A stretch of DNA of 63,814 nt, counting the filler, from Collodictyon triciliatum (Eukaryota), in assembly GCA_043381765.1 (NCBI GenBank). It is 4 parts of 4 records of this genome, joined end to end, with 100 filler letters (N's around TTAATTAATTAA, not from the genome) between each part and the next. Parts side by side here need not be neighbours in the genome. Positions count along the whole stretch, not along the records: positions 17,052 to 33,860 come from JBHJMP010001506.1; 3 more parts are not named here. The stretch is one strand, 5' to 3'. The position numbers and the translations under genes are program-made. Under the pieces are notes generated by a model. It had not been told where the DNA came from, searched no databases, and worked only from the letters and a program-made list of their open reading frames with translations. Positions within the stretch are counted from its first letter, which is position 1. Each line of letters begins with the position of its first letter. This document shows, one piece after another, positions 28,915 through 32,514 of the stretch.

Positions 28915-31900
28915 ATGGAATTAAGTACTTACTCTACAGAGTCGCAGCAATCCACGAGAATGAGCCGGCCGCAGCTGCTCCGGAAAACTGGGTCGAGGAC
29001 ATCTGACCGACAACCAAAGGGCAAAGGCTCGTCGCTGGCTTCGATTCGGGAGTCGCCAGTGGCCTTGGAAGGACTGCCTTTTGCGCCGCCCAGTCTGCCC
29101 GGCCCTCGTTTGCCCCGCCCGTTTGCAAGGCTTGTCCTTCTCGAGGCGTTTCCCTTCCTGCAGATCACCCGCGCAAACACACATCGCGACTCGGCCGTGT
29201 ATTTTCCTGTGGAATTGCCCCAGCCCCTGGCATCTGCATCCGAGTCTGCATCTCTATCGACGTCCAACTCAGCAAATCCATTTGTACCTGGCCAACCACG
29301 CCCGCTTCAGTCGCTGAACCAATCATTTTCGCGCGCATCGGTGAGTCTGCAGATGGTTGCGCCATCCACACACCGGGAGTCAACACCGACTCGTGCGCAG
29401 AGTCTCCACAAGTCTCTCGCCCACAAGCTCGTGTCCATGGCCCAGAATGTTGCAAAGTCTGATGTAGAGAATCAATCGACAGCCTCGCAATCGTTTTCGT
29501 TCTCATCGTCTTCCGTCTCATCGGCTCCTTCCGTCCGCGGACTTCCCAGCTCTATCCACAAATGGACTCACTCTGCGCCCTTGTTCCGTCGAAGATCCAG
29601 CTTGCTGCTGCCTGACTCTGTTCGAAGAACTACCGTGATTCAAGGGCTTACTGTCATCTTCAACTACCTCTTTCTCATATACGTGCCCTTTGCCATGCGC
29701 ATCACAGGAACAGAAAACATTCTCCATTCCAGTTTCGAGAGCTCGTCTCGGTTGCTCTCAGACCGTTATATCCATCCTTTCTACTCCTCAGACAGGCACT
29801 ACGGGGGATGGGAACTAGGTCGAGGATGTGAGCATGATTGTGAACTTATAGCACCGGGTCCAGCAACATATCCTCCCATGAAAGAGTCACGAGATTATTA
29901 TTTCGGTCATTCCATTGTCTCATTCGTGTGTCACTTTTTCTCCGGTTCAGCAACAGATGTCCTTGGTAGGAGTGATGGTGCCGTAGGCGAATCGACAGAT
30001 CACTCCACACTACCGGATACTGTGTATCTAAATTTAATGATAGCCTTTATCGCCGTGGTTGGGATTGGATGCATCTTGGCGTTGTTTTCCCCGTCGCCGG
30101 TTGTTGCTATATTTAGTCCAAGATACTTTCGCCTCTGGGACGAAGTCTGGTATTTCTTTGTGTCTGCCATGCTGATGCCGATTTCTTCATGCCTCTTTTC
30201 AGTATTTCTTTGCCATTCGAACAAGATAGATTATAAAGGACGAGAGTGGTCAGTTCACTCCATCGACAATGATATGAAATGCTGGGAAATGCAGCATTGG
30301 ATACTTTCATTTTCCAGCATGTTTGCCTTTGTGGTGATGATATACTACTCTTTATTTAAGAAGGCAGAATATTTTTCGATGCTGGAAAAGGAAAAAACTT
30401 TCAATTCACGGGCGACCACTGGGCTTGGGTTCTTTTACGAGTCAAACGCTTTCGAGTATTTGGCCAAATTTTTCACTCAAATCTCCTTTGTAATGACATA
30501 TCTCTTCATCATGCCAAAGAGTATATTTGCAGGGAAGGTGTTGCTGTTGCTCTTCTCCATATTCAATTTCTGTGCAACGCATCTGGCCATTTCATTTCCC
30601 AATCCCAGATGTCATGGGATATTTGGAGGCTTCGCTACGATTCTCCTCGTAACCCAAATAGCACTGTTCTTCCCCTCAAAAAATCTGGCTACTTGGGTTG
30701 CGAGTACCTTTGTTTTATTTTTCTGTTCTTACATCCTTGGTGTGATGGCTTCCTCTTACATCCGCTATTCCATCCTCCTCTTGGATTGCGATAAAAATCC
30801 AACCATAGCCCGAAGCAAATTCGATGAAAGACGCGCGCATCATTTTCTAGGGTCACTCCAAAATCCTAGTATGTGTCCAAATGCAAATGTTTTAATGCTT
30901 TCAAGGAAACTGTTCAACTGCCACACAATATTCTCATATCAATGGTGTCCGATGGTGGCATATCCACACCTGAACGAAAAGACAAGGTGGATAGAAAACA
31001 TTGTAGCCATTGATTTGAGTAGAAACTCCTTAGAGTCTTTCCATGTCTCTCACCTCTGCCGTGCTCTGCTAATGTCTTCTGCAAAAATTCAAAAACTCGA
31101 TCTTTCGTTCAACCACCTCAGTGAAACAAGCGTTTACCCTTTGTCATCTCTAATTTTTCATCACAAACATATGAAGGAACTAATACTCGATTACAACCCA
31201 AACATCTCATTGGAAGGGTTTAATTATTTAATTAATACAATACTGGTAACGAAATCATCAGCTTTGGATCACCTGAGCGTGAGCTTCTGCAATCTAGGGA
31301 GCGAAAGTGCCATCCCAATATGCAAGTTACTTTGCTCTCAAAATCACTCTCTGTCTCGACTCAGTTTGAAGGGCAACGAACTGGGCGTCAAGGGCGCGCA
31401 AACGATTTCGGATGCTATTTCCTCAGACGGGCGTCGAGATATCATTCTTCACTTGGAATGGAATAACATGAAGAGGCAAGGGATTGACATGTTGTTGAAT
31501 AGCATACAAATAAACAGCCGGCCGACTAGTTCCAATCCTAAGCCCCCTGAAAGAGCTTTTCTCGAGGTAGAACGCAACGGTTTACGCTCTTCCAATTCCG
31601 GCGATTCAAACAACAGAGGCCCTGATGATGTTGTTCCTTTTGATGCCTCAGACCCAATCCAGTCACCCAAACCATCCACACTGAGCAGCATCGGCGCACT
31701 TCCATTCAAAAAATGTCAAGAATACATGATTACATCGGTCGAAAATGAAGCTGATTATGCTTTAGCCACATCTTTTGGTTCGAGCAATCCTTTATCATCC
31801 AGTCTTACAAGTGCGCCATCATCTCCGTCATCATCAATTGTGCGGACAAGCATCCAAAACATAATGACATCAAAAAATTGTGCTTCTTTTGTCGAATCAG

Positions 31901-32514
31901 GCATTAATCACATAACAAACCAAGACTCTGCTCAGCTTCATTGCAACGAACCCAACGTCGTCGAAAATGCAGATGAATTGACAGACACCTCAAGAGACCC
32001 GTTTCGCTTCAACGACTTGGATGGTGGTGAATGCGAAAGACAAGCCACAGTCCTTGACGAAATCGGCGGAGACAAGAGGCTTGACATGATAGTCCAAAAC
32101 TTTTATTTAAAGGTCCTTGAGGAACCTGTGCTTAGCCCCTTTTTTGAAAGGATGAACATGGCGATAATTCGAAGTCACTCTGTTTATTTTTACACTGGTT
32201 TATTTGGTGAAATGGAAAGGTCGATTAAAATCAACATTCGGCGTGCACACTCCCAGTTTGACATAAACGACGACCAGTTTGACCTTTTCTTGGAGTTATT
32301 TTTGACCACGCTAATCGAGATGGCTCCAAACCTGAAGCCAAAGACCATAAAAAATATCGCAAAGTCGATGGAATCATTCAGGTGCATGATAGTCAAGTGC
32401 GAGCACAGTGATTACAGGAGCAGCGAGAGCATCTTCTCTAAAGTCGCGGTCGCTCTTCGAAGTTATTTCTCCAACAAGTACCATGTGGATTCAGTTGGTG
32501 GAATTGATGTGTAA
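28915..32514 (+). CDS. Intronless 1199-aa protein: Ser/Pro-rich N-terminus, about 8 TM helices, RI-like leucine-rich repeats, C-terminal group 1 (2/2) truncated hemoglobin
   Basis: Uninterrupted 3.6-kb ORF; hydrophobic segments about 29630-30770; LRRs IDLSRNSL/LDLSFNHL/LILDYNP/LSVSFCNL/LSLKGNEL/LHLEWNNM about 31000-31590; globin VLDEIGG...NFYLKVLEEPVLSPFF...RRAH...QFDLF about 32044-32397. Confidence 0.9.
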   Translation: MELSTYSTESQQSTRMSRPQLLRKTGSRTSDRQPKGKGSSLASIRESPVALEGLPFAPPSLPGPRLPRPFARLVLLEAFPFLQITRANTHRDSAVYFPVELPQPLASASESASLSTSNSANPFVPGQPRPLQSLNQSFSRASVSLQMVAPSTHRESTPTRAQSLHKSLAHKLVSMAQNVAKSDVENQSTASQSFSFSSSSVSSAPSVRGLPSSIHKWTHSAPLFRRRSSLLLPDSVRRTTVIQGLTVIFNYLFLIYVPFAMRITGTENILHSSFESSSRLLSDRYIHPFYSSDRHYGGWELGRGCEHDCELIAPGPATYPPMKESRDYYFGHSIVSFVCHFFSGSATDVLGRSDGAVGESTDHSTLPDTVYLNLMIAFIAVVGIGCILALFSPSPVVAIFSPRYFRLWDEVWYFFVSAMLMPISSCLFSVFLCHSNKIDYKGREWSVHSIDNDMKCWEMQHWILSFSSMFAFVVMIYYSLFKKAEYFSMLEKEKTFNSRATTGLGFFYESNAFEYLAKFFTQISFVMTYLFIMPKSIFAGKVLLLLFSIFNFCATHLAISFPNPRCHGIFGGFATILLVTQIALFFPSKNLATWVASTFVLFFCSYILGVMASSYIRYSILLLDCDKNPTIARSKFDERRAHHFLGSLQNPSMCPNANVLMLSRKLFNCHTIFSYQWCPMVAYPHLNEKTRWIENIVAIDLSRNSLESFHVSHLCRALLMSSAKIQKLDLSFNHLSETSVYPLSSLIFHHKHMKELILDYNPNISLEGFNYLINTILVTKSSALDHLSVSFCNLGSESAIPICKLLCSQNHSLSRLSLKGNELGVKGAQTISDAISSDGRRDIILHLEWNNMKRQGIDMLLNSIQINSRPTSSNPKPPERAFLEVERNGLRSSNSGDSNNRGPDDVVPFDASDPIQSPKPSTLSSIGALPFKKCQEYMITSVENEADYALATSFGSSNPLSSSLTSAPSSPSSSIVRTSIQNIMTSKNCASFVESGINHITNQDSAQLHCNEPNVVENADELTDTSRDPFRFNDLDGGECERQATVLDEIGGDKRLDMIVQNFYLKVLEEPVLSPFFERMNMAIIRSHSVYFYTGLFGEMERSIKINIRRAHSQFDINDDQFDLFLELFLTTLIEMAPNLKPKTIKNIAKSMESFRCMIVKCEHSDYRSSESIFSKVAVALRSYFSNKYHVDSVGGIDV

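Follow-up and report, generated by a model that had tools for sequence, protein, structure and literature searches.

An unusual predicted protein of Collodictyon triciliatum joining a multi-pass membrane domain, ribonuclease-inhibitor-type leucine-rich repeats and a divergent group-1 truncated haemoglobin

Introduction

To our knowledge, the truncated haemoglobins of microbial eukaryotes have been studied almost only as small, soluble proteins reactive with nitric oxide (NO) or O2. What might such a globin be doing at the end of a long membrane protein? This question is raised by a locus at 28915..32514 on the plus strand of a 63,814-nucleotide stretch of DNA (the window, analysed here at its full length) from Collodictyon triciliatum, assembly GCA_043381765.1. 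An earlier inspection of the DNA without database searches, referred to here as the sequence-only reading, had proposed that the locus encodes a fusion of hydrophobic segments, ribonuclease-inhibitor (RI)-type leucine-rich repeats (LRRs), a Ser-rich linker and a C-terminal 2/2 globin, and that this fusion represents a new class of eukaryotic globin-coupled sensor. The combination of modules was confirmed by the present analysis, and the sensor class was not. Judged from its sequence, the product could be a haemoprotein tethered to a membrane, with a receptor-like or regulatory role, and not a free oxygen carrier; this is the reading that we lean towards, tentatively and at somewhat less than an even chance.

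Open reading frame and domain layout

The locus was found to be a single uninterrupted open reading frame (ORF; protein P0001) of 1199 codons followed by a stop codon. The preceding in-frame stop ends at 28908, and the ATG at 28915 is thus the earliest possible start. Over the final ~900 codons, the alternative forward frames contain 0-11 stops per 100 codons, mostly 4-8. An ORF of such length is far beyond chance, because 3.6 kb remains open while these other frames are rich in stops. The ORF is free of runs of N, the nearest of which are located at 16952-17051 and 33861-33960, and its GC content is even, at 0.39-0.47, from residue 301 to the end of the protein. In the first ~300 codons the GC content is 0.52-0.59 and only 1-3 stops per 100 codons occur in the other frames; since GC-rich DNA leaves all frames fairly open there, the open frame alone is weak coding evidence for this part. 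Translation could start at M1, M16, M146 or M174. All four precede the first helix, and the architecture is therefore independent of the choice of start. The membrane domain, the LRRs and the globin, which the sequence-only reading had placed in one ORF, all lie on one exon that is open throughout.

From the N-terminus, the protein begins with a Ser/Pro/Arg-rich region (residues 1-242, 28915..29640) that is probably disordered and belongs to no family: residues 1-235 contain 20% Ser, 11% Leu and 10% Pro, and Pfam returned nothing for residues 1-242 beyond noise at E 0.15. It is followed by a multi-pass membrane domain of no known family, recognised by hydropathy (residues 243-616, 29641..30762), six RI-type LRRs (residues 696-870, 31000..31524), a Ser/Asn/Pro-rich linker (residues 871-1043, 31525..32043) and a group-1 (N/T1) truncated 2/2 haemoglobin (residues 1044-1165, 32044..32409). 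A C-terminal tail with one predicted helix (residues 1166-1199, 32410..32514) ends at the stop codon. In the AlphaFold2 model this helix spans model residues 136-154 (residues 1171-1189 of the protein), with a predicted local distance difference test score (pLDDT) of 66-79. All of these segments are encoded on the plus strand.

The DNA at 28915-29800 forms a GC-rich island (0.52-0.59, versus 0.39-0.47 downstream and 0.36-0.43 in the flanks), and antisense ORFs of 112-118 residues within the same interval are a by-product of it. A (CA)n microsatellite is located at 28671-28718, some 200 bases before the ORF begins, and a long poly-T tract at 27880-27906.

The C-terminal globin

The identity of the C-terminal domain was established by profile, sequence and model comparisons. 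The sequence-only reading had predicted a match to Pfam Bac_globin (PF01152) at residues 1044-1161, and the family was found almost exactly there, at residues 1045-1158, covering profile positions 1-118 of 121 with E 2.6e-8 and a score of 34.5 bits, where the curated cut-off is 21. When residues 1016-1199 were used as a phmmer query against the sequences of the PDB, 18 sequences were returned at E <= 0.01. All of them are truncated haemoglobins and group 1 scores best: cyanoglobin of Synechocystis (1s69) was matched at E 1.2e-8, HbN of Mycobacterium tuberculosis (1idr) at E 1e-7, Chlamydomonas THB1 at E 9.6e-6 and the Tetrahymena truncated haemoglobin at E 1.3e-5. The group-2 protein HbO reached just E 0.16.

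An alignment of bacterial group-1 truncated haemoglobins (trHbN), called A1 here, was assembled. A degenerate motif scan gave 120 bacterial trHbN loci, from which 115 ORFs were obtained; a threshold of 27 bits against the query retained 104 of these, giving 105 rows with the query included. The search pattern biased this sample toward actinobacterial and cyanobacterial trHbN. An AlphaFold2 model of the globin built with A1 had a pLDDT of 85.9 and a predicted template modelling score (pTM) of 0.77. In a Foldseek search of the PDB with this model, the top ~20 ranks were occupied by group-1 truncated haemoglobins with template modelling scores normalised by the target, TM(target), of 0.74-0.87, and group-2 proteins ranked lower. 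HbN (1s56_A) was matched with E 7.5e-5 and TM(target) 0.82 and the Tetrahymena protein (3aq5_A) with TM(target) 0.87, over 117-118 columns; Chlamydomonas THB4, the haemoglobin of C. eugametos and that of Paramecium (1dlw) were also among the matches. The 2-on-2 fold is therefore present in a model that was itself built on a trHbN alignment. Taken together, the profile match, the PDB matches, the pLDDT of the A1-based model and the TM values of 0.82-0.87 agree with the complete C-terminal 2/2 globin that had been proposed, and the modelling which had been suggested as a check returned a group-1 fold. On this sequence and model evidence, the C-terminal domain is a complete but divergent group-1 (T1) 2/2 globin, with its proximal side intact and its distal side altered.

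The haem pocket

The division between the two sides of the haem is seen in individual residues. The Gly pair of the AB corner (G1051-G1052) and the proximal His at F8 (H1112, codon 32248-32250) are invariant in 105/105 rows of A1, at positions that the search pattern did not constrain. The query also keeps F1063 (B9), Y1064 (B10) and F1076-F1077, of which F1077 is CD1, so that HisF8, the PheB9-TyrB10 pair and PheCD1 are all present. The B9/B10 Phe-Tyr and the Phe-Phe columns were fixed in advance in the bacterial rows by the search pattern.

On the distal side, GlnE11 partners TyrB10 in stabilising bound O2 in HbN. In the query E11 is S1089, versus Gln in 102 of the 104 bacterial rows, and the polar distal network with GlnE11 is thus missing. 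The EF corner reads Gly-Glu, and its second place is Gly in 102/104 bacterial rows. E7 is I1085 (Leu in 58 and Gln in 45 of the same 104 rows) and E15 is Tyr (Phe in 50, Leu in 43). E10 is H1088, and His is also found there in 33/104 bacterial trHbN, including the cyanobacterial rows inspected. In the cyanoglobin segment "...QRAHQKAF...", the His opposite H1088 is His46, the reversible distal sixth haem ligand of the cyanobacterial globin GlbN. Near their C-terminus, cyanobacterial sequences carry a "QH" insertion whose His forms the covalent link to haem in GlbN; in the query row of A1 this column is a gap. In summary of this comparison, the query resembles GlbN of Synechocystis (1s69, 1mwb, 2hz2) in being its best sequence match and in having TyrB10, HisE10 and HisF8. 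GlbN differs in being a soluble single-domain protein with Gln at both E7 and E11 and with the "QH" insertion column that is gapped in the query.

These residues bear directly on an enzymatic alternative. In both the sequence and the fold comparison, the nearest matches of the globin belong to trHbN (HbN, THB1, THB4 and that of Tetrahymena), proteins that have been studied as NO dioxygenases, and TyrB10 is retained. The protein could then be a membrane-localised NO dioxygenase or nitrite reductase, comparable to M. tuberculosis HbN, Tetrahymena trHbN and Chlamydomonas THB1, in which the LRRs dock a reductase that re-reduces the haem and the membrane domain just positions the enzyme at sites of NO production or damage. 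Published examples include 2/2 globin domains joined to enzymes, nitrate reductase among them (PMC7082302), and membrane association has been reported for M. tuberculosis trHbO and for other globins (PMC4081604). However, Ser stands at E11 instead of the Gln of nearly all bacterial trHbN sampled, the E15 gate residue is Tyr and not Phe or Leu, and no reductase domain is fused to the globin. Furthermore, a multi-pass domain of 373 residues would be costly as an anchor, for which one helix or a lipid would suffice. With SerE11 in place of a near-invariant Gln, the distal site would depart from the NO dioxygenase type of M. tuberculosis HbN, and we regard NO detoxification as a rather unlikely function.

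Leucine-rich repeats and linker

The LRR region consists of repeats of 28-31 residues that start at residues 696, 725, 753, 784, 813 and ~843, and a possible LRR cap precedes them at residues ~660-695. Pfam LRR_6 was matched at E 7e-8 with the whole protein and at E 3.6e-11 with the segment, in three stretches. RI chains of known structure were matched as well, overall at E 1.7e-11 to 1.3e-7: porcine RI (1dfj_I) at E 1.7e-11, 3tsr_E at 8.6e-11, 4peq_B at 4.2e-10 and 1a4y_A within E 1.7e-11 to 4.8e-10. The six repeats thus have both the length (28-29 residues as the reference, 28-31 observed) and the profile and structure matches of the RI type. Six to seven such repeats at residues 695-890 had been expected; six were located at residues 696-870, and the matching profile is LRR_6.

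Between the repeats and the globin, the linker contains 17% Ser and 9% Asn over residues 881-1040, in agreement with the Ser-rich linker described earlier, and 0 Pfam families were matched by residues 881-1042 at E <= 10.

The membrane domain and its topology

Seven clear hydrophobic helices were found at residues 243-263, 370-392, 411-433, 462-482, 537-558, 568-588 and 594-616. An eighth segment at residues 513-533 is weaker, with a mean Kyte-Doolittle value of 1.18, so "about eight" segments was a fair count, though the number may be seven. Helix 1 is directly followed by an acidic loop of 106 residues with three Cys. A Cys/Trp motif, written as P..C.F..F.C...D...CW...HW in the sequence-only reading, is roughly there at residues 421-462, in and after helix 3 (...MPISSCLFSVFLC...D.DMKCWEMQHW); its spacing does not match letter for letter.

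No relative of this domain was recovered. It matched 0 Pfam families at E <= 10 and nothing in the PDB below E 0.74, and a phmmer search with residues 225-660 against 1.84 billion representative sequences gave no credible match. The sole match in that search, a bacterial-type repeat protein, was rejected as spurious: its 88-residue unit matches one 50-residue stretch five times. In the ESM Atlas the best feature scores, 0.86-0.87, belonged to unnamed eukaryotic clusters and were below the mark of 0.9 that is taken as meaningful. The domain is also without internal repeat. A resemblance to the Dictyostelium proteins TmcB/C had been suggested, and it finds no support in the empty Pfam result and the phmmer search (the presence of TmcB/C in the searched set being unconfirmed). 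From its sequence, the membrane domain is real, yet an orphan with no detectable relative.

The N-terminal flank of the first helix is strongly basic (...FRRRSSLLLPDSVRR...). In a model with eight helices and the N-terminus inside, 18 Lys/Arg residues fall in inside loops versus 9 in outside loops. Eight helices together with a basic flank inside would bring the C-terminal half of the protein to the cytosol, and in this inferred topology the LRR and globin half is probably cytosolic. RI-type LRRs and haem-loaded truncated haemoglobins are cytosolic proteins, and the LRR region of the query holds six Cys.

A multi-pass domain that runs directly into a cytosolic LRR region also recalls the LRRC8 volume-regulated channels, in which the cytosolic LRR domain modulates the pore. 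The orphan domain of seven to eight helices might accordingly be the working part of a haem- or gas-regulated channel or transporter, gated by the LRR and globin arm. TRP-type channel clusters were returned by the ESM Atlas at 0.80-0.84, below the 0.9 mark and to be taken as a lead only. Against a channel or transporter, neither Pfam nor the PDB nor the phmmer search revealed similarity of the membrane domain to any such family, and the domain shows no internal repeat; we consider this function improbable.

Relatives, assembly and expression

Three word-indexed searches were carried out, from which divergent relatives may escape. The whole protein, searched against 5.8 billion proteins, recovered just a fish NLR through its LRRs. 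The globin region searched among long proteins gave 70 candidates, none at E <= 0.01, and the globin alone searched among proteins of 77-247 residues gave five, none at E <= 1. Similarly, the 31 pattern matches in JGI metagenome contigs included no relative, and no paralogue was found elsewhere within the window.

The locus itself was partly recovered from the environment. Three freshwater-metagenome contig sets yielded eight short pieces, seven of them at >= 95% identity, which match the ORF at 29549-29815, 30844-30994, 31244-31451 and 31476-31626, and the 3' flank at 32674-32985. None of these pieces lies in the globin or across the LRR-globin linker, and 0 reads were placed from the one raw-read run. 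The coding differences listed from the contigs were three, S272P and two synonymous changes, which is a tiny sample. The join between LRRs and globin rests on the assembly, in which the ORF is gapless and of even GC content (0.39-0.47) from residue 301.

It could therefore be asked whether the locus is an artefact or a dead gene: a misjoined assembly, an unexpressed lineage-specific ORF, or a globin carried on its own internal transcript. Several results point in this direction. No RNA run among the indexed sequencing runs matches the locus, and no relative was found in the protein, representative or metagenome searches. The metagenome contigs cover five short stretches, amounting to about 0.9 kb of the 3.6-kb ORF, with none across the linker or globin. 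Over the first ~235 codons, moreover, the DNA is GC-rich and every frame is relatively free of stops. However, the 3.6 kb is open with no N and no frame break, the GC content does not shift between residue 301 and the end, and the haem-contact residues are intact. With no more than 18-29% identity to bacterial trHbN, the globin is not bacterial contamination, and two of the three coding differences in the metagenome contigs, a tiny sample, are synonymous. An artefact or dead gene is, in our judgement, quite improbable.

Comparison with known globin fusions

Each pairing of modules was compared with fusions described in the literature. Hoogewijs et al. 2012 (PMC3287990) list in their Table S1 a protein of the blastocladiomycete fungus Allomyces macrogynus, AMAG_16521T0 (1129 residues), as "N-terminal ribonuclease inhibitor + T1gb", in which an RI-like region (residues 20-560) precedes an LRR domain (578-800) and the T1 globin (826-944). 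As in the query, a single long eukaryotic polypeptide contains RI-type LRRs and, after them, a group-1 truncated globin. The Allomyces protein differs in that its listed description reports no membrane domain, in a far longer LRR part (residues 20-800) and in a 185-residue unidentified tail after the globin. The two proteins are compared here by domain description only, and a common origin of the fusion is not implied.

According to a survey of 2021 (PMC8076648), the literature contained only a few cases of globins fused to a membrane domain, namely GsGCS and CeGLB33. The database search described there gave 168 globin-PsiE sequences, all bacterial and all of the S family, and 14 potential globins linked to seven-transmembrane (7TM) domains, the GLB-33 type being named "receptor-like globins". 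GLB-33 of Caenorhabditis elegans and its Ascaris homologue consist of a 7TM FMRFamide-receptor-like domain and a C-terminal globin (PMC8076648). The query is likewise eukaryotic, with an N-terminal multi-pass membrane domain and a C-terminal haem globin, and the bis-His hexacoordinate haem reported there for GLB-33 may also be possible in the query through HisE10. However, GLB-33 has a 3/3 M-type globin and a recognisable 7TM receptor, whereas the query has a 2/2 T1 globin, an orphan domain and LRRs between the two. No 7TM Pfam family was matched by the whole protein or its segments, and the resemblance is one of layout only. GsGCS of Geobacter sulfurreducens, for which a redox-sensing or electron-transfer role has been proposed, joins an S-family globin to a four-helix PsiE membrane domain (PMC8076648). 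It shares with the query the covalent tie of a globin to a membrane domain and differs in being bacterial, in having an N-terminal S-family 3/3 globin and a PsiE domain, and in being without LRRs. A further case is AccaN of Acanthamoeba castellanii, a trHbN with a predicted C-terminal transmembrane helix at residues 159-176 (PMC4081604). It shares with the query a group-1 truncated haemoglobin of eukaryotic origin and a predicted attachment to the membrane, but it is small, with a single predicted helix and neither a multi-pass domain nor LRRs. More generally, 2/2 globin domains fused to kinase or nitrate-reductase domains have been described, and chimeric eukaryotic T1 globins exist (PMC7082302, PMC7475203).

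A globin-coupled sensor is defined as an N-terminal S-type 3/3 globin followed by a C-terminal transmitter such as an MCP, GGDEF, kinase, cyclase or PsiE domain (PMC8076648, PMC7475203). The globin of the query is a C-terminal 2/2 T-type domain and no output domain was recognised, so the label used in the sequence-only reading does not apply in its strict sense. The claim of an undescribed architecture was borne out in one part: the triple combination was found neither in the sequence searches nor in the literature, where Vinogradov et al. 2013 and Hade et al. 2017 were outside coverage and may list chimeras similar to this combination of multi-pass membrane domain, LRRs and 2/2 globin. It did not hold for the single pairings, as RI-LRRs with a T1 globin and membrane domains with globins are both in print. 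The architecture is real and unusual, and two of its three pairings have precedents in the fusions described above (PMC3287990, PMC8076648).

Proposed function

The layout is analogous to that of GLB-33, with a 7TM domain and a C-terminal globin, and to the Allomyces chimera of RI-LRRs and a T1 globin, as described in PMC8076648 and PMC3287990. The C-terminal half of the Collodictyon protein, with its short RI-type LRR arc, flexible Ser-rich tether and globin, would face the cytosol. The globin is predicted to bind haem b, and its state would change with O2, NO or redox. HisE10 may serve as a reversible sixth ligand, by analogy with His46 of cyanobacterial GlbN. The haem state could then be read out through protein contacts on the LRR surface or through the membrane domain. 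A regulatory role of this kind was preferred to NO dioxygenation because GlnE11 is lost, HisE10 may six-coordinate the haem, and the partner to which the globin is joined is a module for protein docking and not a reductase.

Several points weigh against a regulatory haemoprotein. Firstly, no transmitter-type Pfam family was found with the whole protein at E <= 1 or with its segments at E <= 10, and without an output domain (kinase, cyclase or other) by Pfam the protein has no identified receiver for a signal. Secondly, the globin is divergent, at 18-29% identity to the 104 bacterial trHbN of A1, and loss of both GlnE11 and the second Gly of the EF corner could impair haem binding or normal ligand chemistry, because each of these residues, found in 102/104 bacterial rows, is replaced. 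The structural support for the globin is also bounded: a single-sequence AlphaFold model was poor (pLDDT 52.1), and the A1-based model leans toward the trHbN fold, so that it corroborates the sequence evidence and is no substitute for it. Thirdly, if residues 513-533 do not span the membrane, only seven helices are left and the LRRs and globin could be on the side opposite to the N-terminus. Finally, the searches above found no orthologue or paralogue that could show the fusion to be conserved, and the indexed RNA runs, as stated above, contain no match to the locus.

Other features of the window

The window is AT-rich, intron-rich eukaryotic DNA with just eight ORFs of at least 200 residues in 64 kb, and the neighbouring genes were recognised by Pfam as scattered exons. 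Just upstream of the ORF lies an exon of an inositol-pentakisphosphate 2-kinase (27610-27834, plus strand). Exons of a P4-type phospholipid flippase are located at 18419-23404 on the plus strand (PhoLip_ATPase_N, E1-E2_ATPase, Cation_ATPase and PhoLip_ATPase_C), and an FIBP homologue at 15188-16570, also on the plus strand. On the minus strand, a short-chain dehydrogenase (12256-13069), an exon of a Ras-family GTPase (5636-5896) and exons of the DNA polymerase epsilon catalytic subunit (37395-46913; DUF1744, POL2 thumb and family-B exonuclease) were found. A TPR protein on the plus strand (55030-55557) adjoins a gap of 474 bases. The exons of DNA polymerase epsilon are spread over ~9.5 kb, and this gene is intron-rich in contrast to the intron-free 3.6-kb ORF.

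Long (TA/TG)n and poly-A/(CTT)n tracts occur at 51.6-52.7 kb. At 16952-17051, 33861-33960 and 50804-50903, that is every ~16.9 kb, paired 44-base runs of N stand 12 bases apart, adjoining pyrimidine-rich low-complexity repeats that translate as runs of Phe, Ser and Leu. Because of their regular spacing, these paired runs look like scaffolding or masking and not like biology.

Implications

If a T-family globin is indeed attached to a multi-pass membrane protein, membrane-fused globins would comprise a third kind, and the locus would offer a concrete protein with which to study how less-studied protists detect or deal with O2 and NO at membranes. The pairing of RI-type LRRs with a T1 globin is now seen in two distant eukaryotes, a blastocladiomycete fungus and Collodictyon, and a functional link between LRRs and globin is therefore worth testing. 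A bolder proposal, to which we give only a small chance of being right, is that the orphan domain of seven to eight helices is a channel, transporter or receptor switched by the O2, NO or redox state of a cytosolic bis-His haem through the RI-type LRR arm, which would make the protein the first case of a 2/2 haemoglobin at the core of a multi-pass membrane protein. If true, it would be a eukaryotic membrane device gated by haem and gas, with no bacterial or animal counterpart, and, seen alongside the Allomyces protein, it would be a hint that eukaryotes possess an old signalling module of LRRs and truncated haemoglobin that has escaped notice.

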